DNA of 64,000 nt from a bacterium (GTDB lineage: Bacteria > Patescibacteriota > Minisyncoccia > UBA6257 > 02-FULL-45-10c): assembly GCA_030700025.1 (NCBI GenBank), contig JAUYKI010000017.1, forward strand, positions 2,748-66,747, read 5' to 3'. Each line of letters starts with the position of its first letter. The first letter of the stretch is position 1. The position numbers and the translations under genes are program-made. Below, piece after piece: positions 1,958 through 57,162 of the stretch. Below the pieces are notes generated by a model. It saw only the letters and a program-made list of their open reading frames with translations, was not told where the DNA came from and searched no databases.

Positions 1958-3340
1958 ATGGATAAGGTGATTAGCTTGTGCAAGCGGCGGGGTTTTATTT
2001 TTCCCGGATCGGAAATTTACGGGGGATTGGCAAATTCCTGGGATTACGGCCCATTAGGGGTGGAATTGAAAAATAATATCAAGCAGGAATGGTGGAGGCG
2101 TTTTGTGCATTCCCGGACGGATGTGGTGGGTTTGGATACGGCTTTAATTATGAACACCAAAGTTTGGGAAGCGAGCGGACATTTGAAGGAATTTTCTGAC
2201 CCGTTGGTGGAGTGCGATGTGTGTAAAAATCGGTGGCGTATTGATGCATTGGATCAAATGAGGGCTCGTAAAGCAGATGGCTCATATAGATGTCCAACAA
2301 TGACGGCCTCTTTTATTAAGGGGGGTGCCGATAGTTATTGCTCGGGCAAATTAAGTGAACCACGCCAGTTTAATTTAATGTTCAAAACTTTTTTAGGCCC
2401 AGTGGAAAGCGAAGACAATACAGTTTATTTCCGTCCGGAAACCGCGCAGGGAATGTTCGTAAATTTTAAAAACGTTTTAGAAACTACCCGCAAGCGTTTG
2501 CCGTTCGGCATTGCCCAGGTCGGCAAAGCATTCCGGAATGAAATTACTCCGGGCAATTTTATTTTCCGCACCCGCGAGTTTGAACAAATGGAAATAGAGT
2601 ATTTTACTCACGAAAAAGATTGGAAAGCTCATTTTGAAATGTGGCTGGAAGAAATGAGAAATTGGCTCCGGCATTTGGGGGTGAAGAAATTCCACGAAAC
2701 GGAAATTCCGGACGGCGAACGCGCCCACTATTCCAAGCGGACCGTGGATATTGAATATGACTTTCCGTTCGGCAAAAAGGAGCTTTATGGCCTGGCCTAT
2801 CGGACAGATTTTGATTTAAAAAAACACATGGATAAAAGCGGGGAGGATTTCCGGTATACCGATCCGGAAACTAATGAGAAGTTTTTACCGCATGTTATTG
2901 AGCCGACTTGGGGCGTTGACCGCTCGGTATTGGTTGCATTGCTGGAGGCTTACCATGAAGAAACGGTTAAAAGTGAAAAGTTAAAAGTGAAAAGTGAGGA
3001 CGATGAAGATACGCGGGTAGTTATGAAATTTCCAAAATGGCTGGCGCCGGTTAAGGTGGCAGTTCTGCCTCTTTCCAAGAAAGAAAATCTTTCCAGCCAA
3101 GCTAAAAAAATTCATGAAGATTTGGCAAAAGATTTTGTCTGTGAATATGACGAAACCCAAAGTATCGGCAAGCGCTATCGCCGGCAGGACGAAATTGGAA
3201 CGCCGTTTTGCGTAACAGTTGATTTTGAATCGCTGGAGGATAAAGCGGTAACGGTGAGAGATCGTGATACAATGAAACAAGAGAGAATTTCTATTTCTGA
3301 ATTAAAGAACTATCTAAATCAGAAATTAAATTCCGAATAA
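1958..3340 (+). CDS. glyQS: Glycine--tRNA ligase, dimeric class II (GlyQS type)
   Basis: Motifs RRGFIFPGSEIYGG, WDYGPLGVELKNN and FRNEITPGNFIFRTREFEQMEIEYF. Start chosen at MDKVISLCKRRGF (ATG 1958), because the ORF-track start at 1892 adds a non-conserved N-terminal extension. That ATG lies inside the right arm of a family-C palindromic element. Confidence 0.85.
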   Translation: MDKVISLCKRRGFIFPGSEIYGGLANSWDYGPLGVELKNNIKQEWWRRFVHSRTDVVGLDTALIMNTKVWEASGHLKEFSDPLVECDVCKNRWRIDALDQMRARKADGSYRCPTMTASFIKGGADSYCSGKLSEPRQFNLMFKTFLGPVESEDNTVYFRPETAQGMFVNFKNVLETTRKRLPFGIAQVGKAFRNEITPGNFIFRTREFEQMEIEYFTHEKDWKAHFEMWLEEMRNWLRHLGVKKFHETEIPDGERAHYSKRTVDIEYDFPFGKKELYGLAYRTDFDLKKHMDKSGEDFRYTDPETNEKFLPHVIEPTWGVDRSVLVALLEAYHEETVKSEKLKVKSEDDEDTRVVMKFPKWLAPVKVAVLPLSKKENLSSQAKKIHEDLAKDFVCEYDETQSIGKRYRRQDEIGTPFCVTVDFESLEDKAVTVRDRDTMKQERISISELKNYLNQKLNSE

Positions 3341-3399: not shown

Positions 3400-4668
3400 A
3401 TGTTTAAAAAGTATGTTTTATCCAGCGGTTTAAGAGTGGTGTTGGCTCCCCAGCCGGACAATGTGGCGGCCACGGTTTTGGTATTGGTAGAGGCGGGATC
3501 AAAATACGAAACCAAAAAAATTAACGGCTTATCTCATTTTTTGGAACATTTATGTTTTAAGGGAACGGCTAAGCGGCCGACGGCGATTGCCATTGCTTCA
3601 GAATTGGAATCTTTGGGAGCGGTTTACAATGCTTTTACCGGGCACGAAGTAACCGGTTATTACGCCAAAGTCGGCGCGTCTAAAATTAATTCGGCTTTGG
3701 ATATTATCGCCGATCTTTATCAGGACCCGGTTTTTGACGAAGCGGAATTTGAAAAAGAAAAAGGAGTTATTATTGAAGAAATTAATTTATACGAAGATAC
3801 GCCGACCCGGAAAGTCCAGGAACTTTTTACGGAATTGATGTACGGCGATCAGCCGGCCGGCTGGCCCATCGGCGGTTTGAAGGAAGTAATTTTGTCGTTA
3901 AAAAAACAGGATGTTTTGAATTACCGCTCGGAGCACTACGTGGCTAAGGCTACGACCGTAGTGGTTGCTGGCGCTTTTAATGAAAAAGAAATGCTGAAAA
4001 GAATAAAAACGCTTTTTGCTAAAACTCCGGCTAACAAAAAATTCTCTAAAATCCGCACTCAAGAATCCCAGGCCCGGCCTCAAACTTTAGTGCGCTTTAA
4101 AAAATCAGACCAAACTCATTTGGTAATGGGCTTCCGGGCATTTGACCGGTACGATAAACGGCAGTACGCGCTGGAAGTTTTAGCGGATATTTTGGGCGGC
4201 GGCATGAGCTCCCGGCTTTTTCAAAGAATCAGGGCAGAATTAGGCGCGGCTTATTACGTTAAAGCCGGAACCGATTTATTTACGGATCATGGATTTTTGT
4301 CCGTATCGGCCGGAGTGGACCACCGGAAATTAAAAGAAGTTATTGAGGCAGCTTTGGGGGAGTTTAAGAAAATTTCTTCGGTTTTGGTAACTTCCAATGA
4401 GCTAGAAAAATCTAAGAATCATTTGACCGGCCAGGCGATGCTGGGTTTGGAAACCTCGGACGCCTTAGCCAGTTTTTACGGAGAACAGGAGATTTTCCAG
4501 GAAAAGATATTGAACCTTCGGGACGTTATTAAAAAAATAGAGGCCGTGACCGCTAAAGACGTTTTAAACGTTGCCCGTGAAATTATGAAGGATAAAAAGT
4601 TGAATTTGGCGCTTATCGGACCGGTCAAGAAGCTTCCGACCGGGCTGGATTTTAGTTTGGGGCGGTAG
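3400..4668 (+). CDS. M16-family zinc metallopeptidase (insulinase/pitrilysin-like)
   Basis: HxxEH inverted zinc-binding motif (HFLEHLCFKGT); 422 aa, typical M16B length and order. Confidence 0.85.
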   Translation: MFKKYVLSSGLRVVLAPQPDNVAATVLVLVEAGSKYETKKINGLSHFLEHLCFKGTAKRPTAIAIASELESLGAVYNAFTGHEVTGYYAKVGASKINSALDIIADLYQDPVFDEAEFEKEKGVIIEEINLYEDTPTRKVQELFTELMYGDQPAGWPIGGLKEVILSLKKQDVLNYRSEHYVAKATTVVVAGAFNEKEMLKRIKTLFAKTPANKKFSKIRTQESQARPQTLVRFKKSDQTHLVMGFRAFDRYDKRQYALEVLADILGGGMSSRLFQRIRAELGAAYYVKAGTDLFTDHGFLSVSAGVDHRKLKEVIEAALGEFKKISSVLVTSNELEKSKNHLTGQAMLGLETSDALASFYGEQEIFQEKILNLRDVIKKIEAVTAKDVLNVAREIMKDKKLNLALIGPVKKLPTGLDFSLGR

Positions 4669-5797: not shown

Positions 5798-5802
5798 TAT
5801 TT

Positions 5803-6092
5803 AGAACCTATCTCAATAATATTTCCTAACCGCGTTGCTAAGATAAATGCCAGATTTCAAGGCACGACGACGAAATTATGGCCATAGCCACATTGAGGAG
5901 GAGTAACGAAGAAATATGGCATTTAGACCGCAACCCAAAGGGACATAGTAAATTTTGTTCATAACTTCGTTGCTCGGGCTCGACGTAGCCAAGCTACAGT
6001 CTCGCCCCTGCCTGCCGGTAGGCAGGCTCGCGCCTTGTTCTGAATCAAAATTTACTTATATCGCGTTTGGAATTATTATTGGGATAGGTTCT
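5803..6092. repeat. Family-A palindromic intergenic element, copy 1 (~290 bp); its 3' end abuts the metG ATG
   Basis: Terminal inverted repeat AGAACCTATCTCAATAATATTTCC … GGAATTATTATTGGGATAGGTTCT. Internal conserved core GCCATAGCCACAyTGAGGAGG…AACGAAG … CTTCGTTGCTCG. Related copies at 27767-28041 and 44559-44831. Confidence 0.7.
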
Positions 6093-6093
6093 T

Positions 6094-7722
6094 ATGTCTA
6101 AGTTCTATATCACTACCTCTATTGCTTATGTTAATGCCGCCCCGCATATTGGTTTTGCGCTGGAAGCGGTTCAGGCGGACGTAGTTGCCCGCTGGCATAA
6201 GCAGGAGGAAGTCTTCTTTTTAACCGGCACAGACGAGCACGGAGCGAAAATTGCCAGGGCCGCGGCCGCCTCGCGCGGCGAGGCGCCGCCGAAAGCGAGC
6301 CTCGCCACTGGCGGGAGCCTCGCCCCAAAGGGGCGGGAAGCCGACAATAAGTTAATAAAAGAATTTGTTGATCAGCAAGCAGAAAAGTTTAAAGCGTTAA
6401 AAAGCGCGCTTAATTTATCCTGGGACAACTTCATCCGGACTTCCGACCAAAAAGTTCATTGGCCGGTGGCGCAAGAAGTCTGGAAGCGGATTGCGGAGGC
6501 GGGCGATTTATATAAAAAAACTTATCAGGGGCTTTATTGCGTCGGCCACGAAGCGTTTGTTACCCAGAAAGACTTAGTGGCGGAAACCCCGACGCTAGAG
6601 GGTCGGGGCTCCGACCGAAGCGCCGGAGATGCCTTAGTATGTAAAGATCATAAAAAAGCCCCGGAGCTTATAGAAGAAGAAAACTGGTTTTTTAAATTAT
6701 CAAAATATACGAAAGATATTGAATTGCGAATAAAGAATGATGAATTACGGATTATTCCGGAAGGCCGGAAAAATGAGGTTTTGGGCTTGCTTAAGGACGA
6801 TCCGGAAGATGGTTCGGCAAGCTCACCACAAGACGTGAGTTTCTCCCGGCCGAGCAAAGACTTAACCTGGGGCGTTCCGGTGCCGGGCGATGATTCGCAA
6901 ACCATGTATGTCTGGGCAGATGCCCTCACGAACTATATTAGCGGTTATGGCGGAGTTAAAAACTGGGAAAAGCATCCGGCGGATATCCATTTTATCGGTA
7001 AAGATATTTTACGTTTTCACGCGATCATTTGGCCGGCGATGCTTTTATCGGCAAAATTGCCCTTGCCGAAAACTATTTTTGTGCACGGCCATATTTTGTC
7101 TGACGGGCAGAAGATGTCTAAATCCTTAGGCAATGTGGTGGATCCGTTTGAATTAGTAAAAAAGTATGGTTCGGCAAGCTCATCACAAGCTGGCACAGAT
7201 GCAGTTCGGTATTTTCTTTTGCGGGAAATTCCGTCGGCGGAAGACGGCGATTTTAGCTATGAAAAATTTACCCAGCGGTATAACGCGGATTTGGCAAACG
7301 GATTAGGTAATTTTGCGGCCCGGGTTTTAACCCTTGCGAGTAATTACAGCGAATATTTTACAATTCACGCTAACCCCCAGAACGTTCACGAGGTGGTTAA
7401 TGACAAAATTAAGGAAACCCAATTATTAGCTAATAAGAAAATCACGGATTTTAAACTTAACGAAGCACTAGAAATAATTTGGAGCTTAATCCATTTTGGG
7501 GATCAGTATATAAATGAAAAAAAACCATGGGAGCGAAAGGATGAAAAAATAATAGAGGCAAATGGCGTAGCGATTCACAGTTCGGTAGCAATTTTAAATA
7601 ACGTGGCGATTTTACTCCAACCATTTTTGCCGGACACCGCGGATAAAATTACCAAGAGCATCGTTTGGGAAGAAGGTAGGCTGGAAATCCAAAAGACCGA
7701 AAATTTATTTCCGAGATTGTAA
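6094..7722 (+). CDS. metG: Methionine--tRNA ligase (core enzyme, no C-terminal tRNA-binding extension)
   Basis: N-terminal HIGH region (YVNAAPHIGFALEA), KMSKS motif (QKMSKSLGN), and the DAVRYFLLREIP anticodon-binding motif. Contains three in-frame low-complexity insertions (see findings). Confidence 0.9.
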   Translation: MSKFYITTSIAYVNAAPHIGFALEAVQADVVARWHKQEEVFFLTGTDEHGAKIARAAAASRGEAPPKASLATGGSLAPKGREADNKLIKEFVDQQAEKFKALKSALNLSWDNFIRTSDQKVHWPVAQEVWKRIAEAGDLYKKTYQGLYCVGHEAFVTQKDLVAETPTLEGRGSDRSAGDALVCKDHKKAPELIEEENWFFKLSKYTKDIELRIKNDELRIIPEGRKNEVLGLLKDDPEDGSASSPQDVSFSRPSKDLTWGVPVPGDDSQTMYVWADALTNYISGYGGVKNWEKHPADIHFIGKDILRFHAIIWPAMLLSAKLPLPKTIFVHGHILSDGQKMSKSLGNVVDPFELVKKYGSASSSQAGTDAVRYFLLREIPSAEDGDFSYEKFTQRYNADLANGLGNFAARVLTLASNYSEYFTIHANPQNVHEVVNDKIKETQLLANKKITDFKLNEALEIIWSLIHFGDQYINEKKPWERKDEKIIEANGVAIHSSVAILNNVAILLQPFLPDTADKITKSIVWEEGRLEIQKTENLFPRL

Positions 7723-11716: not shown

Positions 11717-11743
11717 ACCCCGATAAATGTCGGGGTTTTTAAT
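11717..11743 (+). terminator. Rho-independent terminator after the acyl-CoA ligase gene
   Basis: CCCCGAtaaatgTCGGGG followed by TTTTTAATTT. Confidence 0.7.
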
Positions 11744-11745
11744 TT

Positions 11746-11891
11746 AGAAAGAGTGTTTTATTCTCCCGCTACTGTTCAAACTCCCGGCGAGAGTTTTCAC
11801 TGGGTCTCGGGCTTCGCTCTTTCCGCCTTTGGCGGAAAACCCTGCCCGCTCAGCCCTCAGCCCGCGCTACGGAGAATAAAACACTCTTTCT
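11746..11891. repeat. Family-B palindromic element, copy 1 (~146 bp)
   Basis: Terminal inverted repeat AGAAAGAGTGTTTTATTCTC … GAGAATAAAACACTCTTTCT. The interior is the reverse complement of the copy at 36625-36809 (shared GAGCGAAGCCCGAGACCCAGTGAAAAC and GCTGAGCGGGCAGGG blocks). Confidence 0.7.
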
Positions 11892-11996
11892 AATTTTTAT
11901 GGAAATAAAAAAACCACGGCTTAACGCACCGTGGTATTGATTAGCGCCCTTGCTAATGCCCGCAAGAGTAAAGGGTTATGCCGAAACGGGCCCTGA

Positions 11997-14966: not shown

Positions 14967-15028
14967 AAGAAAAATTATCTCGTCTTCGTTGCTTTAGTAT
15001 AAAATCATCAGTTATATATGTATATATG

Positions 15029-15164
15029 CCCGGTATTACAACTTTGATCGTAAAAGTTTCAGCGAGTTATTTAAGAAAAACTATGAAATTACCTAATTTA
15101 TTAATTATAAAGTCGACAAAGCGCTTAATTTTAATTAAGCGCCAATCAAAGTTGTAATACCGGG
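15029..15164. promoter_or_regulatory. 20-bp inverted repeat enclosing a ~95-bp AT-rich segment with an inner perfect palindrome, immediately 5' of the glmS ATG
   Basis: CCCGGTATTACAACTTTGAT at 15029-15048 pairs with ATCAAAGTTGTAATACCGGG at 15145-15164. Inner palindrome AAGCGCTTAATTTTAATTAAGCGCC. The glmS ATG is at 15166. Confidence 0.45.
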
Positions 15165-15165
15165 T

Positions 15166-17028
15166 ATGTGCGGTATAGTCGGTTACATCGGAAAACAGAA
15201 AGCCGCTCCCATACTTTTGGACGGCATTAAAAGCTTGGAGTATCGCGGTTATGATTCAGCGGGAATTTCCGTGATTAATAATCAAGGAGGAGTGGCGGAG
15301 GCGCAAGTGGAAAAAGCGGTTGGCAAAGTAATTAATTTAGAAAATAAAATAAAGTCCCGGGAGCTGTTAGGCGGCCTCGGGATTATTCATACCCGCTGGG
15401 CCACTCATGGCGGAGCCACCGAGGCCAATGCTCATCCGCATAGCGATTGCGCTGGCAATATTTGGCTGGTTCACAATGGAATTATTGAGAATTATAAAGA
15501 GCTAAAAAATGAACTGATTTCCGCCGGCCATCAGTTTAAATCGGAAACTGACACGGAAGTCGTTGCTCATTTAATCGAAGAGCAAGTTAAAAGTTTAAAG
15601 TCAAAAGTTCAAAGTTATGCGTTAGAGGACGCGGTGCGGTTAGCTTTGAAAAAAGTCCGCGGAGCTTACGCGCTGGCGATTATTGATAAGCGCGAGCCGG
15701 AAAAATTAGTGGCCGTCCGGAATTCCAGCCCGCTGATTTTGGGAATCGGCAATGATGAATATCTGGTGGCTTCGGACGCTTCGGCGGTAGTAAAGCATAC
15801 CCGCAAAGTGATTTATTTTAATGACGGCGAAATGGCAATTTTAACTCCGGATAATCATCGGGTGGTTAATCTGGAAAACCAGGCAGTAGATTCTCAGCCG
15901 CAAGAATTAGATTGGACTGTGGAAAGCGCCCAGAAAGGAGGCTATCCGCATTTTATGCTGAAAGAAATTTTTGAACAGCCGGAAGCGGTAGAAAATTGTT
16001 TGCGCGGAAGATTGGTAGTTCAAGAGGGAACGGCTAAACTGGGCGGATTGGAATCCATTAAAGATAAATTGCGGGAAATAAAAAGAATTCATATTTCCGC
16101 CTGCGGTACGGCTTATTTGGCCGGAAAAGTGGGTGAATATATGCTGGAAGAATATGCCGGCATTCCGGTAGAAGTGGATTTGGCTTCCGAGCTTCGTTAT
16201 CGCAAACCCGTTTTTGATAATCATGACGCGGTGCTGGTGATTTCCCAATCCGGAGAAACGGCGGATACGCTGGCTTCGGTAAAAGAAGCCAAGGAAAAGG
16301 GAATTTTAACTTTAGGCATTGTTAATACGGTGGGATCGTCCATTGCCCGGGAAACCGAAGCCGGAATTTATCAGCATATCGGTCCGGAAATCGGCGTAGC
16401 TTCCACCAAAGCATTTACTTCGCAGGTGGCGGTGCTGGCGCTCTTAACTTTATTTTTGGGAAGGCAGCGGCAAATGTCTTTGGTAACCGGCGAGCGGATC
16501 GCGCGGGAATTGCAGAGGTTGCCGGAATTAATCCGAAAAGTTTTGCAGTCCGAAGATTTAATAAAACAAATCGCCGTCAAATATCAGACCCACAATAATT
16601 TTTTATACTTAGGCCGGAAATATAATCTGCCGATTGCTTACGAGGGAGCGTTAAAATTAAAAGAAATTTCCTATATCCACGCTGAAGGCTATGGCGCCGG
16701 AGAAATGAAGCACGGCCCGATTGCCATGATTGACCAGAATTTGCCGTCGGTAGTAATTGTTCCGTCGGACTCGGTTTATGAAAAAACTGTTTCTAATATT
16801 GAGGAAATTCGCGCCCGTCGAGGTCCGGTTATCGCCATTGCCACTGAAGGCAACGAAGATATTAAAAGTTTGGCGGACGACGTTATTTATATTCCGAAAT
16901 CTTTGGAAATGCTGACTCCGATTTTATCGGCGGTTCCGCTCCAGCTTTTTGCTTATCATGTCGGAGTTTTGCGGGGATTGGACGTAGATAAGCCCCGTAA
17001 TCTCGCTAAATCGGTTACCGTGGAATAA
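15166..17028 (+). CDS. glmS: Glutamine--fructose-6-phosphate aminotransferase (isomerising)
   Basis: N-terminal MCGIVGY with a Cys2 nucleophile; two SIS domains; C-terminal …SVTVE; 620 aa. Confidence 0.95.
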   Translation: MCGIVGYIGKQKAAPILLDGIKSLEYRGYDSAGISVINNQGGVAEAQVEKAVGKVINLENKIKSRELLGGLGIIHTRWATHGGATEANAHPHSDCAGNIWLVHNGIIENYKELKNELISAGHQFKSETDTEVVAHLIEEQVKSLKSKVQSYALEDAVRLALKKVRGAYALAIIDKREPEKLVAVRNSSPLILGIGNDEYLVASDASAVVKHTRKVIYFNDGEMAILTPDNHRVVNLENQAVDSQPQELDWTVESAQKGGYPHFMLKEIFEQPEAVENCLRGRLVVQEGTAKLGGLESIKDKLREIKRIHISACGTAYLAGKVGEYMLEEYAGIPVEVDLASELRYRKPVFDNHDAVLVISQSGETADTLASVKEAKEKGILTLGIVNTVGSSIARETEAGIYQHIGPEIGVASTKAFTSQVAVLALLTLFLGRQRQMSLVTGERIARELQRLPELIRKVLQSEDLIKQIAVKYQTHNNFLYLGRKYNLPIAYEGALKLKEISYIHAEGYGAGEMKHGPIAMIDQNLPSVVIVPSDSVYEKTVSNIEEIRARRGPVIAIATEGNEDIKSLADDVIYIPKSLEMLTPILSAVPLQLFAYHVGVLRGLDVDKPRNLAKSVTVE

Positions 17029-20017: not shown

Positions 20018-20019
20018 AA

Positions 20020-20068
20020 TTGGCTTGTATCGCGTTATGGGATTACTATTAGAATAGGTTCTATTATG
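20020..20068. repeat. Partial family-A element, 3' portion of ~50 nt, abutting the ATG of the downstream secreted-protein gene
   Basis: TTGGCTTGTATCGCGTTATGGGATTACTATTAGAATAGGTTCTATTATGG. Compare the copy-3 end TTGGCTAATATCGCGTTATGGGATTATTATTGGGATAGGTTCTATG. Confidence 0.55.
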
Positions 20069-27766: not shown

Positions 27767-28041
27767 GGGGTCTGTCATAAAATTACTGGCTTAATTTGGA
27801 GGCCTGGATTTGAGACAGGTACGAGACGCGACGACGACAACGTGTCTGAATGAAGGACACGTTGAGGAGGAGTAACGAAGTAGCTGGCCAAAGATAGGCC
27901 TCCCCGAAGGGCCAAAGCATTTTATGGGCTGCGACTGCGTCACTCGTCGTCAATGTAGCTAAAGCTACAATCTCCTCCTCGTTTCTTGTCTCGCTCCAAA
28001 AATGCTATGGTAAATAAGTCATTAATTTTATGACAGACCCC
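27767..28041. repeat. Family-A palindromic element, copy 2
   Basis: 19-bp terminal inverted repeat GGGGTCTGTCATAAAATTA … TAATTTTATGACAGACCCC. This outer stem differs from copies 1 and 3, but the core GTTGAGGAGGAGTAACGAAG … CTCCTCCTCG is conserved. Confidence 0.65.
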
Positions 28042-28151
28042 AGTATGGTATAGTTTAAGTAAGCATTATAAACAAGAACCTATTGAAATGGGTTCGGGCA
28101 ATCGATTTGATAAGGTCGCGATTAGCTCAATTCTAATTTTTCAAAAAAACT

Positions 28152-36566: not shown

Positions 36567-36624
36567 AAATTTTCGCCTCGGCTTTTTGCCGGGGCTTTTT
36601 ATTTCTACGAAAGCAGTTTTTGAG

Positions 36625-36809
36625 AAAAGAAACTTTATTCTCCGTAGCGCGGGCTGAGCCTGCCTGCCGGTAGGCAGGGGCTGAGCGGGCAGGGTGTCCC
36701 GCGAAGCGGGACGAGCGAAGCCCGAGACCCAGTGAAAACTTCCCTCACTCTTGTACAAAAGTGAGGGACTGGGAGTTTGAACGGTAGCGGGAGAATAAAG
36801 TTTCTTTTC
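36625..36809. repeat. Family-B palindromic element, copy 2 (~185 bp); its right end overlaps the comFC stop codon
   Basis: GAAAAGAAACTTTATTCTC … GAGAATAAAGTTTCTTTTC arms. The internal hairpins differ from copy 1 but stay complementary. It also carries the CCCTCACTCTTG…CAAAAGTGAGGG hairpin and the GCCTGCCGGTAGGCAGG hairpin also present in family-A copy 1. Confidence 0.7.
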
Positions 36810-37543
36810 TAGCGTGTTTTAGCAATTACCAACGCGATTATTTTTTTGGCGCCGGCGGATTTTAAAGTTTTAGCGGCTTCGCGGATAGTGGCTCCGGAAG
36901 TGTGAACGTCGTCAACGAGAAGGATATTTTTTCCCACTATCAGTTCTGGGTAATTAACCGCGAAGCAGTTAATCACATTTTGCGCCCGTTCTTCATGATT
37001 CTTGGCAAGCGACTGGGTTTTAGTATTTTTAATTCTTTGAATCGGCTCCGTTAAATCTAATTTATAAAAATCAGCAACAATTTTCGCAATCAATTTTGCC
37101 TGATTAAATCCGCGTTCTTTTTCCCGATCTTCGTGAAGCGGGATTGGAACCACGGTAAAATTTCTAATATCTAAATCCAAATTTCTAAGATACGAGACTA
37201 GAATTTCGCCTAATGGCCTTTGAAGCCGCTGCCATTTTTTAAATTTAAATAATTTCAGCAAAGTCCGGATGGAATCGTTATCGTAATTAGTGGCGGCGGC
37301 CAAAAGATAAGGAGAATCTTTATGGCAGACCTTTTTATTATCCGCCAGGCGCAATCCGCAAACCGGGCAAAAAAGCGAAGTATTGAGGCGGATGCCGGCC
37401 CAGCACTCCGGGCAAAGATCGCCTTCAGCGTTTTTTTGGCAGTTTAAGCAGAGCGGAGGAAAGAGGATGTCCCACAGCCAGGTTTTCATTTTTTGGAGAT
37501 AGCTCATGTCTGTTATACTAATAATAGATTTAGAATAAGGCAA
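36809..37543 (-). CDS. comFC: ComF-family competence protein (double zinc ribbon plus phosphoribosyltransferase fold)
   Basis: N-terminal CLNCQ…CPECW…CPVCG zinc fingers; C-terminal PRTase motif VLLVDDVHTSGAT. Confidence 0.8.
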   Translation of the reverse strand: MPYSKSIISITDMSYLQKMKTWLWDILFPPLCLNCQKNAEGDLCPECWAGIRLNTSLFCPVCGLRLADNKKVCHKDSPYLLAAATNYDNDSIRTLLKLFKFKKWQRLQRPLGEILVSYLRNLDLDIRNFTVVPIPLHEDREKERGFNQAKLIAKIVADFYKLDLTEPIQRIKNTKTQSLAKNHEERAQNVINCFAVNYPELIVGKNILLVDDVHTSGATIREAAKTLKSAGAKKIIALVIAKTR

Positions 37544-39373: not shown

Positions 39374-39381
39374 GATGAATC

Positions 39382-39504
39382 CCACACATAACAAAGACTA
39401 TAGGATATTTAAGCTAATAACTATGATAGTAGAATTAAAATGTCACATTAAATTAAAAGGCAAGGATTTGCGGAAAACTTCGCAGTCTTTGTTATGTGTG
39501 GGAT
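39382..39504. repeat. Palindromic element exactly filling the pilN-pilO-like spacer (19-bp perfect arms)
   Basis: CCCACACATAACAAAGACT … AGTCTTTGTTATGTGTGGG. The right arm overlaps the start region of the downstream gene. Confidence 0.6.
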
Positions 39505-43352: not shown

Positions 43353-44557
43353 AATTTAAATACGTTGCTAAAACTAAAACCGGCGAGCTGCAAACAGGAT
43401 TTATTGAATCGCAGGACCGCAATTCCGCCACTAGCGCTTTGGTTAGCCACGAGCTGGCAGTTTTAAGCTTAGAATCCGCGGATGTGCCAAAGTGGTACGA
43501 ACAATTTTTAAATTTATTTAAAAGAGTAAGCAGTACCGACCTGATGGTTTTTACCCGCCAATTCGCCACTTTATTGGATGCTAAAATTTCCTTGGGCGAT
43601 TCTTTAAAAAATCTTCATCGCCAAACCCGCAATGTTGCCTTAAAAGAAGCGGTATTTGATATTTCGGCGGACATTGAAGCCGGCTTGTCTTTATCGCAGG
43701 CCTTGGAGCGGCACTCCGCGATTTTTCCGGACTTCTACGTTAACATGGTGCGTTCGGCGGAAATTACCGGCCGGATGAGCGAAGTTATGATGTTTTTGGC
43801 GGATTATCTGGAAAAGACCCAGGCGACTTCCACTAAAGTCCGGAACGCCATGATTTATCCGGTAGTGGTAATTATTTTGCTGGTTGGCGTGATGCTGGTG
43901 ATGGTAGGTTTTGTTTTTCCTAAGTTAATTCCGGTTTTTGAAGAATCAAACGTGGAATTGCCGTTAATCACTAAAATAATTTTTGCCATTGGAACCTTTA
44001 TCAGCAATTGGTGGTGGCTGGTTTTGCTGGCTTCTATTGCCGGAGCTTATTTTCTGGTTTCTTACTTAAAAACCAAAGAGGGCAGGGTAGTGTTAGACGA
44101 AGTTTTAATGAAATTGCCGGTTTTTGGAACTATGCTTCGGAAGCTGTATATTTCTAGATTTGCCGAACTGACCAGCGTTTTGATAAAAGGCGGAACTCCG
44201 ATAGCCCAAAGTTTGGGAATTGCCGGCAATACCGTGGGCAGTTTTATTTATCGGGACCAGATTTTAGAAATTGCCGAAGCGGTCCGGCAGGGACAGCTGA
44301 TGTCCCAGGCGCTGGAAGAACGGCAGGTGTATTTTCCGGTTTTAGTCAGCCAGATGGTTTCCGTGGGCGAAAGCACCGGCAAGCTGGAAGAGTTATTAAG
44401 CCGGGTATCAAGCTTTTACACAAGAGAAGTGGATGACTTGGTTAATAATTTGGTAGAATTAATTCAGCCCCTTCTGATGGTAGTAATCGGCGTGGCAGTA
44501 GGAATTTTATTTGCTTCAGTATTGCTGCCAATTTTCAGCTTGGTGCAGACTTTCTAA
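43349..44557 (+). CDS. pilC: Type IV pilus platform protein PilC (GspF family)
   Basis: Two T2SS-F domains; 402 aa; 4-bp overlap with pilT. Confidence 0.9.
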   Translation: MKFKYVAKTKTGELQTGFIESQDRNSATSALVSHELAVLSLESADVPKWYEQFLNLFKRVSSTDLMVFTRQFATLLDAKISLGDSLKNLHRQTRNVALKEAVFDISADIEAGLSLSQALERHSAIFPDFYVNMVRSAEITGRMSEVMMFLADYLEKTQATSTKVRNAMIYPVVVIILLVGVMLVMVGFVFPKLIPVFEESNVELPLITKIIFAIGTFISNWWWLVLLASIAGAYFLVSYLKTKEGRVVLDEVLMKLPVFGTMLRKLYISRFAELTSVLIKGGTPIAQSLGIAGNTVGSFIYRDQILEIAEAVRQGQLMSQALEERQVYFPVLVSQMVSVGESTGKLEELLSRVSSFYTREVDDLVNNLVELIQPLLMVVIGVAVGILFASVLLPIFSLVQTF

Positions 44558-44558
44558 T

Positions 44559-44831
44559 GAACCTATCCCAATAATAATCCTCAAACGCGTTGCTAGTATA
44601 AATTGAAAATTTCTAGGCCTGCCGAGGAGCTTGTGGCCATAGCCACAGTGAGGAGGCAGAACAACGAAATTTTCAATTTAGACAGCAACCCCAAGAGGGA
44701 TACAGCCAATTTTATCCATAACGTCGTTGCTCGTCGAAGATATAGCTTACGCTATAAATCTTCTCCTCGCGTCTAGTTCTGAATAAAATTGGCTAATATC
44801 GCGTTATGGGATTATTATTGGGATAGGTTCT
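44559..44831. repeat. Family-A palindromic element, copy 3; begins 2 nt after the pilC stop
   Basis: GAACCTATCCCAATAATAATCC … GGATTATTATTGGGATAGGTTC arms; core GCCATAGCCACAGTGAGGAGG … CTTCTCCTCG. Confidence 0.7.
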
Positions 44832-44932
44832 ATGTTACACTTATTAAAGGTCGGAAATAAGATGTAATACCAATATACGAATTATTCGTATCATTAGTAT
44901 GAATTAGTATATTAGTATCTCATTATAAATAT

Positions 44933-50477: not shown

Positions 50478-53453
50478 ATGAATATCCGGAATTATAAATT
50501 TTTAATACTTTTCTTAATCGGCCTTTGGGGCGCCGGTAATTTGGCCTTTGCGCAAATTACGCCGGACCCTGGTGAGCACGCGGTTAGAGTTTATAAATCC
50601 GGCACCGGCAGTGGTTTGGTAACAGACCAGTATTCCCAAATTGACTGCGGGAACGATTGCCAGGGGAATTATATTGGGGCTGCTTCCACCTGGGTTACTT
50701 TGGAACCTTTTCCTTCTCCTAACAGCTCTTTTGCCGGTTGGTACGGTTGTGACTCCGTAAATACCATGGTTATATTGCCTGATTTGCCGACTTGCTCAGT
50801 TAATACGAGCCCCTTCGTTCCTAGATCAGTTAACGCGATTTTTAACTCTAACACCCCGTGGCATCAAGCTAAATTAACCGTGACTACATCGGGCGATGGC
50901 GGGGGATCGGTATTTTCCAATCCCGGATTTATCAGTTGCGGAGCGGTTTGTTCCGATAATTTTTCGAATCCTTCTTATCCTTTATTTACCGCCACTCTTA
51001 TCAACACCGGTTCCTTAGGGTCATTTACCAATCAGCAGGTAATACATATTGTTGATAGCAGTGGTAGAATCACAGTGGGCGGAAATAGGCTTCAGACCCT
51101 CAATTCGGAAGGTGTGACCAATCCTCAGCAAACTATTATTGACATAGCGGACGGATTTATAAACGTATCGCCGACTATTAAATATATTTACGCGCTGGGA
51201 TATAGGGGGAGTGGAAATATTGCTGAATATCTTTTGGACGTGATTAATCCTTCTGCTCCTCAGGGAGCGCAAGCTAGTGCGCCAGAGGTGGTGAATCGTA
51301 TTCCGCTCCCCATAGATTCAACTGGAGGGGAAGATTACAGCGTTTACTCTAAAATTGCTCTGGCCGGAAATTTTGTTTATATAACTCGTTGGTCAGGAAC
51401 TTCGGTCAGCGCGGGTGGCAGTGGAGGCGCTTTATTGATTTTTGATATATCTGATCCGTTGAATCCGGCGCAGGTCGGGTTCATTGCTCCCCGCTTCAGT
51501 CCTGGCTATGGAATCGCGGCGATTAATAATCCTTTTATTGGAAATTATGCTTATATGGGACAGCAGCATCAGTTCTCTGTAATTGATGTTTCCAGTCCGG
51601 CTAGTCCGGCAGTTGTCGGCACTGTCGGCGGCACCGGCCTATTTAAGGGCGTTTTTAATGAAGTGGCTGAAGCCTTTCCGTATGTTTATGTTTCCAGCGT
51701 GAATGCTTCGGATAATTCCAATACGCTTTATATTATAGACGTTAGTAAGCCGAACAGCCCGGCGTTGATTAGCGCGACACCGATTGATTATTTTAACGGC
51801 GATTTAAGGCCGGCCGTCGGAGGAAAGCTTCTTTTTATCGGTTCCACGGTTTATGATGTTTCTGATCCGTTTCATCCCAGAAAAATCGGCCAAGGGCCGG
51901 GAGGCGTTCAATATGGGGGCGATACTTCTTTTCAAGTTGGAAGTTTGAATGAAGGCAATGATTATGTTGTAACCGGAACCAACGCTACGGGATTCGGCAT
52001 CTACTCGATTAAAAGAACTTTTGTTACGGGTACTGGTTGGGTTCCCACTTATGACCTTTTATCTTTTGCTCCCGGATTGGGAATTTATCCTAACCCGACT
52101 GTTAGTTTATCCGGAGAGCCGGAAGACGATTCGATTTTGGGCGCTTGGTCCGGAGATGTTCCGGGAACTTGCGCCAACAACGCGTCGTGTTTAGTAACTG
52201 CTGTTTTGGGCGCGGAAACTAACGCAGATGCCAGATTTGATGCCGCCGCGGCGCTCGCGCCTACTTCGGCAACTTTAACCGTTACTAAATCCGGAAATGG
52301 ATCCGGCCATGTATCTGATTCGGCTTTGGATTCTTCTTCGTTAGGCGGCGCTTCTTTGGGCGGCGGATCATTGGGTTTTGTTTCCGGGGGAATTGATTGC
52401 GGCGGGGATTGCGATGAAACTTACCCAACGGACACCAGCGTAATTCTTTTGGCAACGCCAAGCGCCGGATCGGATTTTGTAAAATGGAATGGCTGTGTAA
52501 TCGGTGCGGTAATGAAAGATGACGGAGCGCTTTGGAATCCGGCTACTTTGGCGGCTAAACAATCTAACGGCGCTAATGCTTGGGACGGAAGAAATTACAG
52601 CGCCTTGGCTTTCCAAAACAAGCTTTGGGTTTTAGGAGGCGGGAGCACCTTAGGCCAAGTATGGTATTCGGCTGACAACGGCATTACTTGGGCGCAGTAT
52701 ACTCGGGCCTTTATCGCTCCGTCGTCGTGGGCTCCGTGGTGGTCAACTAAATTCGGATTCTCGGCGTTGAGCTACGGAACCAAGATGTGGGTTTTGGGCG
52801 GAACGGAGGGCGGTAGTTCTTATACTAATGAAGTTTGGAGTTCTTTTGACGGCCAAAATTGGAGTCAGGGGCTGAATGCCGATTGGTCTCCGCGGGTTAA
52901 CTTTGCCGCAACCAGATTTAACGGCTCTATGTGGGTATTGGGCGGAAATGCTAAAGAAAATAATAGTTTTGTAAATAAAAATGATGTCTGGTCTTCGGTT
53001 GGCAGTTCCGGATATTGGAGTCCTGTAAATGTATCTGCCGCTTGGTCTGCCCGACAAGGCCATGCCGCAGTCGCTTTTAATGGCCAATTATGGGTTTTAG
53101 GCGGATTGGACGCGGGCGGTTATAAGAATGACGTTTGGTCATCTTCCAACGGAACTGATTGGATTCAAAAAAATTCTTCGGCGCCTTGGCCGGCTCGGGC
53201 TTTTCATAAAGTTTTGGTTTTTGATAATAAACTTTGGGTGATGGGCGGTTCGGGCTCTTTTCAGCCGGCCGATTTTAAAAATGATGTGTGGTATTCCGTG
53301 GACGGCGTTAATTGGATTCAGTCGGGATTGGCGGATTGGCCGGCTCGGTTTGATTTTGGCGCTACGGTTTTCAATAATAAAATGTGGATTTTGGGCGGAA
53401 CGGTCGGGTCCAATTTATATGTAAATGACGTTTGGTATTCGGCGGCGCATTAA
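50478..53453 (+). CDS. Giant secreted protein combining InlB B-repeat, LVIVD beta-propeller and C-terminal Kelch-like beta-propeller repeats
   Basis: Signal peptide. LVIVD-type blades (LLIFDISDPLNP, FSVIDVSSPASP, LYIIDVSKPNSP). Six repeats of ~48 aa of the form W..R..H…VFNNKLWVLGG…KNDVWSS.DG..W; 991 aa. Confidence 0.7.
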   Translation: MNIRNYKFLILFLIGLWGAGNLAFAQITPDPGEHAVRVYKSGTGSGLVTDQYSQIDCGNDCQGNYIGAASTWVTLEPFPSPNSSFAGWYGCDSVNTMVILPDLPTCSVNTSPFVPRSVNAIFNSNTPWHQAKLTVTTSGDGGGSVFSNPGFISCGAVCSDNFSNPSYPLFTATLINTGSLGSFTNQQVIHIVDSSGRITVGGNRLQTLNSEGVTNPQQTIIDIADGFINVSPTIKYIYALGYRGSGNIAEYLLDVINPSAPQGAQASAPEVVNRIPLPIDSTGGEDYSVYSKIALAGNFVYITRWSGTSVSAGGSGGALLIFDISDPLNPAQVGFIAPRFSPGYGIAAINNPFIGNYAYMGQQHQFSVIDVSSPASPAVVGTVGGTGLFKGVFNEVAEAFPYVYVSSVNASDNSNTLYIIDVSKPNSPALISATPIDYFNGDLRPAVGGKLLFIGSTVYDVSDPFHPRKIGQGPGGVQYGGDTSFQVGSLNEGNDYVVTGTNATGFGIYSIKRTFVTGTGWVPTYDLLSFAPGLGIYPNPTVSLSGEPEDDSILGAWSGDVPGTCANNASCLVTAVLGAETNADARFDAAAALAPTSATLTVTKSGNGSGHVSDSALDSSSLGGASLGGGSLGFVSGGIDCGGDCDETYPTDTSVILLATPSAGSDFVKWNGCVIGAVMKDDGALWNPATLAAKQSNGANAWDGRNYSALAFQNKLWVLGGGSTLGQVWYSADNGITWAQYTRAFIAPSSWAPWWSTKFGFSALSYGTKMWVLGGTEGGSSYTNEVWSSFDGQNWSQGLNADWSPRVNFAATRFNGSMWVLGGNAKENNSFVNKNDVWSSVGSSGYWSPVNVSAAWSARQGHAAVAFNGQLWVLGGLDAGGYKNDVWSSSNGTDWIQKNSSAPWPARAFHKVLVFDNKLWVMGGSGSFQPADFKNDVWYSVDGVNWIQSGLADWPARFDFGATVFNNKMWILGGTVGSNLYVNDVWYSAAH

Positions 53454-53456
53454 AAT

Positions 53457-55103
53457 ATGGAAAACTGGAAACAAAAAATTTATTTATTGTTGGCGTTGGC
53501 GGGAATTGGATTTATCGCGGGAACCGTTTTTGCCGCGGATGCCGGGGTTCGCTGGTTTCAAACCGATCCGGTCGCCGGGGCAATCTGGACTGCCAGAAAC
53601 GGACACTCGGCTCTGGTTTTTAACAACAAAATGTGGATTTTAGGAGGAACTCTCTCGCCGGGTTATAAAAATGATGTTTGGCTTTCTTTTAATGGCATCA
53701 ATTGGGTTCAACGGACTCCGTCCGCCGCGTGGCAGGCCAGGACCGAACACGCGTCCCTAGTCTTTAATAATAAAATGTGGGTTTTGGGAGGATCTATCTC
53801 GACGGGTTTTAAAAATGATGTTTGGTCTTCCGCGGATGGATTTACTTGGAATTCAGAAACTGCCGCGGCCGCCTGGCCGGCAAGAGATCGCCACGCGTCC
53901 CTAGTTTTTAATAATAAAATGTGGATTTTAGGAGGATCTACCTCGGCGGGTTCGAAAAATGACGTTTGGTCTTCCGTGGACGGAATTACTTGGACGCAAG
54001 AAACTGCTTCCGCCGGCTGGTCTCCGCGTTTCGACTTAGTAGCTCTCGTTTTTAATAACAAGATGTGGGTTTTAGGCGGCAGTGGTTCTCTGAATGATGC
54101 TTGGTCTTCTTCAGATGGAGTTACGTGGACCAGGGTCAGTCCGGCAATTGGCGCTGATTGGCCGGGGCGGTCCGGGCATACCGGAGTGGTTTATGACGGA
54201 AAAATGTGGATTTTTGGCGGACAAAGAGCAAATACCATTTTTAATGATGCTTGGTATTCCGTGGACGGAATAAGTTGGTCTCAGGCGTTATTAGCGGCTG
54301 ATTCTCAATGGGGCGCCCGATGGAATCACGCTTCTTTAGTCTTTAATAATAAAATGTGGATTTTGGGCGGTTCTGGCGGCCCTAATAAAAATGATATTTG
54401 GCATTCCCAGCAGGATAATCTTCCGGTGGAAGCGTGCGTGATTACCAGTGATAGAAATCGGACTGTTGACGCGGAATTTAAAGGCCAGCTTTATACGGTT
54501 ACGGTGGTTAGCATTAATCAGGACGGAGCCGGAAAAGGCGCGGTTAGTTCCACGGATAATAAAATCAGCGATTGCCAAACGATTTGTTCCGCCGAAAATT
54601 ATGCTTACAATTCCAGTGTTGCTTTAAACGCCATGGCCGCCGACGGTTCGGAATTTGACCATTGGGAAGGGCCAAGCCCTTGCGATAACAGCGCCGAATT
54701 GAGCTGTTCTTTGACTTTAACCGGCGATGTAACTGTTTACGCGGTATTTAAATCGTTGATGGCCGCTTGCGTGGTGGAAAAATCAGTTACCGCGAACTTT
54801 GCCACTTCTTTTCCGACTTGTACGCTGACGATTGCTCCGCAAGGAACAAATGCCAGTCAGGCAATTATTTCTTGGACCACCACTAATAATCCGACTAGCG
54901 CTGTTATAGATGATGGCGTTGGTGCGCCAGTAGCGGTGACTATCCCGCCGGCCAGCGGTAGCATGACGATTACTCCGCCTGGCAACACTACTTATATTAT
55001 GACCGTCACGAATAACGCCGGCAGCCGCACTTGCAGCGCTCAGGCTTCAGCGGCGCCCGGAAGATTTCAATTTAAAGATATTCGCGAAATTCTCCCGTTT
55101 TAG
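53457..55103 (+). CDS. Secreted Kelch-like beta-propeller protein (8 blades) with a C-terminal InlB B-repeat-like domain
   Basis: N-terminal TM/signal anchor. Eight near-identical repeats ARxxHASLVFNNKMWILGG…KNDVWSSxDGxTW. C-terminal Cys-pair domain. Confidence 0.7.
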   Translation: MENWKQKIYLLLALAGIGFIAGTVFAADAGVRWFQTDPVAGAIWTARNGHSALVFNNKMWILGGTLSPGYKNDVWLSFNGINWVQRTPSAAWQARTEHASLVFNNKMWVLGGSISTGFKNDVWSSADGFTWNSETAAAAWPARDRHASLVFNNKMWILGGSTSAGSKNDVWSSVDGITWTQETASAGWSPRFDLVALVFNNKMWVLGGSGSLNDAWSSSDGVTWTRVSPAIGADWPGRSGHTGVVYDGKMWIFGGQRANTIFNDAWYSVDGISWSQALLAADSQWGARWNHASLVFNNKMWILGGSGGPNKNDIWHSQQDNLPVEACVITSDRNRTVDAEFKGQLYTVTVVSINQDGAGKGAVSSTDNKISDCQTICSAENYAYNSSVALNAMAADGSEFDHWEGPSPCDNSAELSCSLTLTGDVTVYAVFKSLMAACVVEKSVTANFATSFPTCTLTIAPQGTNASQAIISWTTTNNPTSAVIDDGVGAPVAVTIPPASGSMTITPPGNTTYIMTVTNNAGSRTCSAQASAAPGRFQFKDIREILPF

Positions 55104-56118: not shown

Positions 56119-57093
56119 ATGAAAACGACAGCGCTGGCGTTGATTTTGCTGGCCGGATCTGCCGGGGCAACAATTGGAACTAATTCCGGATTAACCGCGC
56201 TTTATATTTCTGGCAGTGAAATTTACGTCACGAGCGCTTCGACCAATACCGTAAAAATCTTCCGTTTTTCTCCGCCGTCAACTTTAGCGCAGGTCGGGAT
56301 TCCTGCCTCCACGGATCAGGAACCGGTCTTTATTTCGGTTCCAAACCCCTATGCTTATGTTTTGAATCGGGGAGCCAAGACATTGCAGACCTTTATCGCG
56401 GACGATAATTTCTTATTGCCATTAGGATCGGTTCCGGTCGGATTTAATCCGACTTCGGCCGTGGTTCGGATACCGCATATTCTTATTACTAATTCCGGAT
56501 CTAATTCTTTGCAGGCGCTGGATGTTTCCTGCAATTCCCGCCCGGTAACTATCGGGCGAATTTCTACCGGTTCGGTTCCGACATCGTTATACGCGGAGGG
56601 AAAATATGCTTTTGTGACTTGTTCCGGAGAAGATCTGTATCAGATTTTTAATATCGGCAAATTGCGGTGGGGAATATCATTAACCGGATCAATTAAGACC
56701 GATGAGGGTCCGGTGGCAAGTTATGTGGCGGGTCCGAATGCTTTCGTCATTAATACGATTGCCAATACTCTGCAGGCGTTCAATGTTTCTGATCCGGTGA
56801 AGCCCGCGGAATTAGGCTGGGTTCGCACTAGCGTGGGCCCGATTGCGATTACTGGCAGCGGAAACTTATTATTTGTCGCTTGCCGGTTTTCCAATACTTT
56901 GGAAATTTTTGACGCGTCTAATCCCGCGAAAATGGTTTTGCTTCACGGGATTGGCGTGGATTACGGCCCAACGGCAGTAGCGGTCAATGGCCCCTATGCC
57001 TTTGTGGCTTCCCACAAAATGCTCCAAGTGTTTGACGTTTCCGATCCGCTTCGCAAACCGCCGGTTCTGGTCGCTTCCATTACAGTGAATTAA
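56119..57093 (+). CDS. Secreted LVIVD-repeat beta-propeller protein
   Basis: Signal peptide; repeated blades YAYVLNRGAKTLQTF, NAFVINTIANTLQAFNVSDP, LLFVACRFSNTLEIFDASNP, YAFVASHKMLQVFDVSDP. Terminator at 57103-57135. Confidence 0.7.
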   Translation: MKTTALALILLAGSAGATIGTNSGLTALYISGSEIYVTSASTNTVKIFRFSPPSTLAQVGIPASTDQEPVFISVPNPYAYVLNRGAKTLQTFIADDNFLLPLGSVPVGFNPTSAVVRIPHILITNSGSNSLQALDVSCNSRPVTIGRISTGSVPTSLYAEGKYAFVTCSGEDLYQIFNIGKLRWGISLTGSIKTDEGPVASYVAGPNAFVINTIANTLQAFNVSDPVKPAELGWVRTSVGPIAITGSGNLLFVACRFSNTLEIFDASNPAKMVLLHGIGVDYGPTAVAVNGPYAFVASHKMLQVFDVSDPLRKPPVLVASITVN

Positions 57094-57162
57094 AGTTTAT
57101 TCCCCCTAGACTGCGGTCAGGGGGAATTTTTATTAGGATAGGTTCTTGGTATAATTTAAGTA

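Follow-up and report, generated by a model that had tools for sequence, protein, structure and literature searches.

Three full copies of a palindromic element of about 280 bp are dispersed over a 64-kb stretch of contig JAUYKI010000017.1 from a member of the Patescibacteriota (the window; all positions are given in its numbering, and copies 1–3 are named by position). Is this element a mobile repeat, an RNA selected for its fold, or both? The original prediction favoured a selected fold over a MITE (miniature inverted-repeat transposable element). Selection on the fold finds support in the covariation of a 13-member alignment, but the opposition to a MITE does not hold in view of an empty site, target-site duplications and remnants. 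We consider it probable, at roughly 0.7, that the copies belong to a family of non-autonomous MITEs that are moved in trans by an IS1031-type transposase, with the core serving as a cis-acting module needed by the element itself. A precise insertion with target duplication, multiple decaying copies and an occurrence in two phyla are directly visible in the sequences.

Insertion with a three-base-pair target duplication

Sequence collections were scanned with a spacing-constrained pattern of the core, and hits were checked with a profile hidden Markov model (nhmmer) built from the family alignment. The search for copies beyond the window yielded 10 further members, in an Elusimicrobia metagenome-assembled genome (MAG), a Harrisonbacteria MAG and groundwater/sediment metagenomes. 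In the one-genome-per-species collection, L001, L003 and L004 lie on three contigs of Elusimicrobia MAG JACQYT01, and L002 lies in Candidatus Harrisonbacteria MAG JACPTS01. The metagenome collection holds six true members (L006, L007, L009, L010, L012 and L013); the other two of its eight hits, L008 and L011, are chance matches within coding sequence. Since the closest relatives of the window MetG are Harrisonbacteria/Parcubacteria proteins (∼64% identity) and the genes flanking L003 are 60–90% identical to genes of other Elusimicrobia MAGs, the family is present in two phyla. The copies of the Elusimicrobia MAG are 93–99% identical to one another, yet they lie in unrelated contexts.

A direct view of an insertion is provided by L003. 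Orthologs with 90% identity to the radical-SAM gene upstream of it occur in another Elusimicrobia MAG and a Joint Genome Institute metagenome (L033/L034). There the empty locus reads ...GAATCATGGCGC-TGA-TGCCATGCC... (core reading GGCGC-TGA-TGCC), whereas the filled locus reads ...GAATCATGGCGC-TAA-(GGAGCC...264 bp...GGCTCC)-TAA-TGCCCTGCC..., showing that L003 is a precise 264-bp insertion at a stop-codon triplet with a 3-bp target duplication. Target-site duplications had been proposed as a check in the original prediction, and identical TTA or TAA triplets flank 4 of the 11 complete copies (window copy 1, L001, L003 and L012). By a rough estimate that assumes ∼1 in 40 per identical triplet, this would happen by chance about once in 10^4.

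In the window, the copies and their remnants are as follows.

5801–5803, + strand: target-site duplication of copy 1, left copy, TTA; flanks TTA-GAACC...GGTTC-TTA
5804–6091, + strand: copy 1, A-type subfamily, 288 bp from GAACC to GGTTC; profile score 199.7 bits
6007–6026, + strand: 20-nt hairpin insertion CCTGCCTGCCGGTAGGCAGG, in copy 1 only, at the place of CCUCCUC in other members; identical to 36659–36678
6092–6094, + strand: target-site duplication of copy 1, right copy, TTA; its A is base 1 of the metG start codon (6094–6096)
20018–20064, + strand: 5'-truncated A-type copy, last ∼47 nt; 89% identical to 44787–44833
27767–28041, + strand: copy 2, 275 bp, canonical core, terminal repeat GGGGTCTGTCATAAAATTA; profile score 205 bits
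28075–28096, no strand assigned: mini-palindrome AGAACCTATTGAAATGGGTTC, both A-type termini with the interior missing
44559–44831, + strand: copy 3, A-type, 273 bp, with pilC (T2SSF) on one side and a pilin gene on the other; profile score 187 bits
57122–57146, + strand: solo A-type terminus, 25 nt, 88% match in a repeat search, flanked by a terminator and the gene that starts at 57163

A repeat search thus recovers all three full copies where the original prediction had placed them, at 5803–6092 (one extra base on either end of copy 1), 27767–28041 and 44559–44831. The 3' fragment, previously given as 20020–20068, is also present; it comprises the 3' strand of arm 2 and the 3' terminal repeat, and lies between a terminator and the ATG at 20066. 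The mini-palindrome is probably a collapsed copy, which brings the content of the window to three full copies and three remnants (the 47-nt fragment, the solo terminus and the collapsed copy), and the terminal 9-mer ATAGGTTCT occurs seven times against 0.36 expected, well above chance. Copy 1 is degenerate, with an altered D' motif and an insertion in place of the E' motif; copy 3 has its D motif mutated to CCGAGGAG and is flanked by AAT and TAT, without a clean duplication. Outside the window, L004 is truncated on its right side and L013 has an additional solo A-type end. Logan contigs of SRR13727534, assembled independently from the same sample, break within copy 1 (L005 starts at ∼5819, L037 ends at ∼5843), which is what a repeat present there in several copies should cause.

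The element is small (complete members are 264–275 bp long, copy 1 reaching 290 bp owing to its insertion) and has no open reading frame conserved across the alignment; a small reading frame behind the GAGGAGG motif was discarded, as it has no conserved start codon. Every complete copy carries perfect or near-perfect terminal repeats of 17–21 bp. As noted before, copies 1 and 3 have the terminal repeat GAACCTATC(C/T)CAATAAT in common, whereas the repeat of copy 2, GGGGTCTGTCATAAAATTA, is another one, perfect over 19 bp. The stems of copy 2 are 60–68% identical to the Elusimicrobia copies but only 31–47% identical to copies 1 and 3, so the window genome holds two subfamilies, the A-type of copies 1 and 3 and that of copy 2, and one of them is common to both phyla.

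Relatives of the metG locus (MetG 65–72% identical) keep the order peptidase M16, AI-2E transporter, metG, but their spacer between the transporter gene and metG is 64–66 nt long, compared with 348 nt in the window. In one of them (L028, MetG 72% identical), positions 3590–3618 upstream of metG contain ten extra bases, ATAAGACCTA, relative to the reconstructed empty window site. These resemble the A-type terminus (TTAGAACCTA) and may be what an older insertion at this spot left behind on excision or decay.

Viral contigs were scanned four times, with patterns of the whole core and of half cores; three scans gave no hits, and the fourth gave 14 that the profile search did not confirm. BLAST found no match to copy 2 among plasmids or to L010 among phages, and in the literature we found no description of this repeat family. 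Searches for sequence extending the window contig gave short contigs or nothing. A profile search of ∼62 kb of related Parcubacteria contigs detected neither further copies nor solo termini, indicating that the terminal motif is not a general promoter of the clade.

Element ends at start and stop codons

The proximity of element ends to start and stop codons, as described in the original prediction, is real. GGTTC of copy 1 ends at 6091 and the metG ATG begins at 6094; the fragment ends at 20062–20064, just before the ATG at 20066; and copy 3 begins at 44559, shortly after the pilC stop (44555–44557). Copy 1 seems to end one base before the metG start because the right-hand TTA supplies the A of the ATG. 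Among the junctions, L003 and L004 lie at TAA stops, L012 and L002 form TAG stops, and copy 1 lies at TT-ATG, the target being a stop codon in L003 and a TTA overlapping the A of the metG ATG in copy 1. These ends are best explained by a TNA target preference rather than by a role in the 5' untranslated region. TAA, TGA, TAG and TTA are concentrated at gene boundaries, so that copies would land on stops or against starts.

A different account of the same junctions is a free-standing structured noncoding RNA gene or cis-regulatory leader, multiplied by duplication, whose 3' end acts at start codons. Strong covariation and invariant loops (see below) would fit such an RNA, and start codons follow 0–16 nt after the ends of copy 1, of the 47-nt fragment and of two solo termini. 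Moreover, the 3' arm of the A-type contains an outward match to the sigma-70 consensus, TTGGCT-18-TATTAT, and the 47-nt fragment covers exactly this stretch; this is a match to the consensus only. We nevertheless regard this account as quite improbable, since the element inserts precisely with target duplication, copies within one genome are decaying and relatives lack the element at the metG locus. The gene neighbourhood is not conserved either, with both orientations represented, including a copy that appears to be antisense within a ribosomal-protein operon. Rfam offers no matching family: at the gathering score the whole window contains only tRNAs, and copies 1 and 2 gave nothing relevant at E values up to 10. 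A T-box leader for metG was rejected, as there is no Rfam hit and the other copies are not beside tRNA-synthetase genes.

Orientation to neighbouring genes is mixed, and no consistent transcription context or strand emerges from the 13 copies: the sense strand is co-oriented with the upstream gene in 5 of them, and at least 4 would be transcribed antisense. L010 (3389–3659) lies antisense in a 280-nt gap between two minus-strand genes, 5 nt from each. We take these genes to be rpsS and rplV (L22 N-terminus MAQITAKLNYL...), and we read the copy as sitting inside a normally tight ribosomal-protein operon.

Remnants at gene starts may have been kept since the displaced gene came to depend on the end of the element. 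An extended −10-like sequence, TGGTATAAT (57147–57165), lies 7 nt before the ATG at 57163 and would give a leaderless-type start; a near-identical TGGTATAGTTTAAGTAA (28044–28060) follows copy 2, without an obvious gene. In L013, the outer inverted repeat (3047–3063 and 3300–3316; outward reading ATGAAAAAGAGACTC) gives the adjacent open reading frame its start codon and first four codons (MKKRL) on one side. The product of this frame (MKKRLFIAINFP...HITVTF) is presumably a candidate 2'-5' RNA ligase, and either the gene borrowed the end of the element or the repeat grew over the start of the gene. L013 and the sequence 'AAGACCTAT' upstream of metG in L028 hinted that the outer stem arises by inverted duplication of the target, but identical ends at unrelated loci and the clean empty site rule this out as a general rule.

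Conserved fold of the interior

Folding of the window copies compared with shuffled sequence gives z = −9.7, −13.7 and −8.7 for copies 1, 2 and 3, respectively. We analysed the fold of the family with RNAalifold on the 13-member alignment (A3). The predicted structure consists of an outer stem of ∼28 pairs, arm 1, a small central CCC/GGG hairpin and arm 2, with 74 pairs in total, 57 of which show compensatory change. The tip hairpin of arm 1 covaries, whereas that of arm 2 is invariant (GUAGC-N3-4-GCUAC). In copy 2 the parts are located as follows.

27768–27797, + strand: outer stem, 5' strand, partner 28012–28041; the outermost ∼19 bp are the terminal inverted repeat
27799–27902, + strand: arm 1; stem 27799–27821 with 27881–27902, tip hairpin 27841–27861
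27822–27838 (CGAGAC-GCGACGACGA) and 27862–27880 (UUGAGGAGGAG-UAACGAAG), + strand: purine-rich internal loop of arm 1
27903–27911, + strand: small central hairpin CCC-GAA-GGG, on the element axis; alignment columns 145–155 and 146–154 are C-G in 11/11
27911–28011, + strand: arm 2; stem 27911–27934 with 27989–28011, invariant tip hairpin GUAGC-N-GCUAC 27952–27972
27935–27950 (CUGCGUCA-CUCGUCG) and 27973–27988 (UCCUCCUCG..UUCUUG), + strand: pyrimidine-rich internal loop of arm 2

Pairing statistics were counted on the structure including candidate loop–loop pairs (90 pairs). Of the cells observed, 91.5% are paired, compared with 71.6% in column shuffles and 38–45% when partners are slid by 1–3 columns. 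Compensatory changes occur in 57 of the 90 pairs, and none of 500 shuffles reached the observed covariation score. The arm stems are best supported, with 16/16 pairs in arm 1 (helices 3–5) and 9/10 pairs in arm 2 (helices 13–16) changed on both sides; in the outer stem (helices 1–2), 21/24 pairs show compensatory change. Identity between subfamilies is 28–47% in the outer stem and 22–45% in the arm stems, but 67–94% in the internal loops. The earlier suggestion that internal stems change yet remain paired is therefore confirmed over the whole alignment, with invariant loops. The shared core described at the same time is likewise present in all copies, except that 'GCCATAGCCACA' is a covarying hairpin for which copy 2 has GTGTCTGAATGAAGGACAC, and that CTCCTC is absent from copy 1, which carries the insertion CCTGCCTGCCGGTAGGCAGG there.

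The arm 1 loops are purine-rich, CAAGG-CGACGACGA (5' side) and UUGAGGAGGAG-CAACGMAG (3'), and the arm 2 loops are pyrimidine-rich, CUKCGU-CUCGUCG (5') and CCUCCUCG-CCUUG (3'). Loops of the two arms are mutually Watson–Crick complementary in the same 5'-to-3' order (CGACGA/UCGUCG and GAGGAGG/CCUCCUC), and the two loop–loop pairings would cross if both formed in one molecule. In the model, this complementarity could represent a switch, an intramolecular pseudoknot or an intermolecular contact. A simple rod or perfect palindrome was rejected. In that register the arm strands are only 58% paired, and C-C and G-G oppositions are invariant (columns 74/243 C-C and columns 111/190 G-G, both in 11/11). 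In most members, the two-arm and rod folds differ little in free energy. Profile scores are strand-biased (152–229 bits on the forward strand and 20–88 bits on the reverse strand), which reveals a conserved polarity and shows that the element is no true palindrome.

Covariation supports the structure, but palindrome homogenization can mimic it, and in quasi-palindromes template-switch correction can keep the strands complementary even if RNA is not under selection. An ordinary MITE could therefore be envisaged, in which the invariant motifs (CGACGA, GAGGAGG, GTAGC..GCTAC and CAAGG) are double-stranded subterminal binding sites for a transposase or host protein and the stems covary through template-switch or gene-conversion correction between the arms during replication. 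Consistent with this, the same layout is met going inward from either end (CAAGG, CGA(C/G)GA..., the GTAGC hairpin, (G/C)GA(G/C)GAG and ACGCAG), as for subterminal repeats. The outer repeats are perfect over 19–21 bp within each copy, as concerted correction would produce, the orientation to genes is random, and the strand signal of G-U versus A-C is weak. However, local arm hairpins with strands ∼60 nt apart are not needed for symmetric recognition of the ends, and the arms keep 90–91% pairing with compensatory change at 25 of 26 pairs. Fixed left/right C/G differences are found in all subfamilies with perfect crossed complementarity, and homogenization would have erased them. We therefore judge an ordinary MITE unlikely; template-switch correction cannot easily explain either the fixed C/G asymmetries or the local arm hairpins.

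The shape of the fold also recalls RNA-dependent mobile systems, such as a non-autonomous IS110-type element with a bridge-like RNA or an orphan retron-like msr-msd RNA. These have a similar topology, a long closing stem with two arms and large internal loops, and the identical triplets at the ends could be a recombination 'core'. Here, however, the loops are invariant while the termini of subfamilies and the insertion sites differ, so that the loops cannot guide ends or targets. The long terminal inverted repeats are absent from IS110, Pfam identified no recombinase or reverse transcriptase among 20 window proteins, copies are many and dispersed, and the Rfam retron msr model is unmatched. 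Such a system is highly improbable.

Comparison of the window copies indicates where selection acts. When copy 1 is set against copy 3, identity is 67% in the loops and 77–86% in the stems, so the window copies show no stronger conservation of loops than of stems. CCUCCUC is missing from copy 1, in which CUCGUCG is altered as well, and copy 3 has CCGAGGAG in place of CGACGACGA, with CGACGA mutated. The loss of core motifs in single copies implies that inserted copies drift, and conservation across subfamilies must then come from selection on lineages that are still transposing or persisting. We read the core as something that the element itself needs in cis, and not as a host gene.

Proposed mobilization in trans and relation to known elements

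Which enzyme might move the element? In ISLrh, which is 857 bp long and belongs to the IS1031 group (IS5 family), the terminal repeat is GAACCTGTCTAGTATCT, and TNA is the preferred target of this group, with an exclusively 3-bp direct repeat (PMC12016507). The A-type terminus GAACCTATC is identical to the ISLrh repeat, the single reference repeat compared, at 8 of the 9 terminal bases. The terminal repeats of the subfamilies begin GGAGCCGTTAAG..., GAACCTATC... and GGGGTCTGTC...; all start with GA or GG, and the other subfamilies share only this GR start, copy 2 also having CTGTC. A 3-bp direct repeat at TNA is likewise found, as TAA or TTA when duplicated and TGA when empty. From terminal sequence and type of duplication, an IS5-family, IS1031-group DDE transposase is therefore the putative mobilizing enzyme. 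It would act in trans, recognize the outer ∼17–20 bp of the inverted repeats (5'-GR...YC-3', e.g., GAACCTATC) and insert the element at TNA, where the 3-bp duplication would be made. Since ISLrh is almost entirely coding, the ∼200-bp interior is unlikely to be a remnant of the ends of such an insertion sequence.

Pfam analysis of 20 window proteins, including those encoded by the genes flanking every copy and fragment, revealed no transposase; the neighbours have housekeeping functions (AI-2E transporter, MetG, SWIB, citrate synthase, PilC and pilin). At other loci, the neighbours identified are radical-SAM genes and rpsS/rplV, the latter as read from the sequence. Within the member loci, extra occurrences of the terminal repeat of each subfamily are limited to the elements themselves and the solo A-type end of L013.

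Several points weigh against this interpretation. No autonomous IS1031-type element with matching ends was found in our searches, and the assignment to this group consists of 8/9 bases and the duplication type. The terminal repeats are the least conserved part of the element, although in a MITE they are normally the most conserved, owing to transposase binding. Seven of the 11 complete copies have no clean duplication, which may be due to decay. In the helices, the excess of G-U over A-C is weak (29 versus 17, ∼p = 0.05, from sequences that are not independent). Finally, given template-switch correction, covariation alone does not prove a folded functional molecule.

In our favoured interpretation, the core would be needed for the element to propagate or be tolerated and would work as a folded single strand, either a transcript or single-stranded DNA, although we are least sure of the single-stranded action. 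More tentatively, and with a lower probability, we propose a functional folded nucleic-acid module carried on interchangeable IS1031-type ends and required for mobilization or for harmless insertion into operons. Its two arms may pair by way of their complementary internal loops, giving either a pseudoknot or switch within one molecule or an antiparallel homodimer made from two copies. If this is correct, the family would represent a new class of 'structured-core' transposon and a candidate for natural loop–loop (paranemic-like) pairing between internal loops. The pattern of conservation points to a cis-acting function at the level of RNA or single-stranded DNA that is missing from current descriptions of bacterial MITEs. 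Both phyla share groundwater habitats, and the pattern points to a noncoding element that has spread between bacteria of the candidate phyla radiation (CPR) and Elusimicrobia. Such an element explains recurrent assembly breaks and odd 'leaders' abutting start codons in CPR genomes, and L003 with its empty counterpart forms a precise empty/filled pair for the design of mobilization experiments.

MITE-like repeats are unusually frequent in the window genome, at around one every 7 kb. Small palindromic elements flanked by inverted repeats and of at least three further kinds lie at 11741–11896 and 36623–36810, at 15026–15167 and at 39379–39504. The first two copies form one family in opposite orientation, with ends ...TTTATTCTCC / GGAGAATAAA... 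and a GC-rich interior. The hairpin CCTGCCTGCCGGTAGGCAGG of copy 1 (6007–6026) also lies inside the element at 36623–36810 (36659–36678), which suggests a very small mobile or converted module. The original prediction had seen modular shuffling between families in this; the identity of the two hairpins stands, but a single 20-nt insertion in one degenerate copy does not amount to regular module exchange. Elsewhere, tandem coding repeats of ∼144 nt (∼10 units, 52600–54400) occur in the open reading frames 50478–53453 and 53457–55103, and the neighbouring frame 56119–57093 carries an LVIVD repeat, on the basis of which the products of all three are probably beta-propeller-type surface proteins.

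How does the family compare with known elements? IS110/IS1111 bridge (seek) RNAs consist of two stem-loops with large internal loops on a mobile element, and our family shares the two arms with large internal loops and the mobile context. In bridge RNAs, however, the loops are variable guides that match ends and target, whereas here they are invariant and match neither; IS110 also has no long terminal repeats, which are present here. In retron msr-msd, a multi-hairpin RNA of ∼200 nt is closed by a flanking repeat that varies but always pairs, much as the variable yet paired outer stem closes the multi-hairpin structure here; unlike a retron, the family has no adjacent reverse transcriptase (among the window proteins), many dispersed copies and a target duplication. 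Palindromic elements derived from IS200/IS605 (PATE) and REP-REPIN have no terminal inverted repeats and no target duplication and insert 3' of a fixed tetra- or pentanucleotide, in contrast to the long terminal repeats and 3-bp duplication found here.

With the IS1031 group and ISLrh, the family shares termini that start with GA or GG (GAACCTATC compared with GAACCTGTC in ISLrh) and insertion at TNA with a 3-bp repeat (PMC12016507). It differs in having no transposase gene and in combining a conserved interior with terminal repeats that diverge strongly from one subfamily to another. PIF/Harbinger transposons and Tourist MITEs also duplicate a 3-bp target (TWA) and depend on IS5-related transposases (PMC4482050), but they are eukaryotic and have no conserved structured interior.

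Classical bacterial MITEs (Correia/CREE, ERIC/IRU, RUP, BOX and QMITE) resemble the family in being shorter than 300 bp and bounded by terminal inverted repeats, in having short direct repeats that erode over time, in targeting AT-rich intergenic DNA and in giving transcripts that form long, stable hairpins (PMC10969869). They are, however, confined to a genus or family and have conserved ends, whereas the present family spans Patescibacteria and Elusimicrobiota and keeps a two-arm core with invariant, mutually complementary loops between variable ends. Compensatory changes are also seen in ERIC elements. The usual pattern, in which the ends define a MITE and the interior is treated as neutral, is reversed here, as the interior defines the family. 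The copies thus form a MITE family, probably of the IS5/IS1031 type, whose ends are interchangeable and whose core spans phyla and is constrained in structure.

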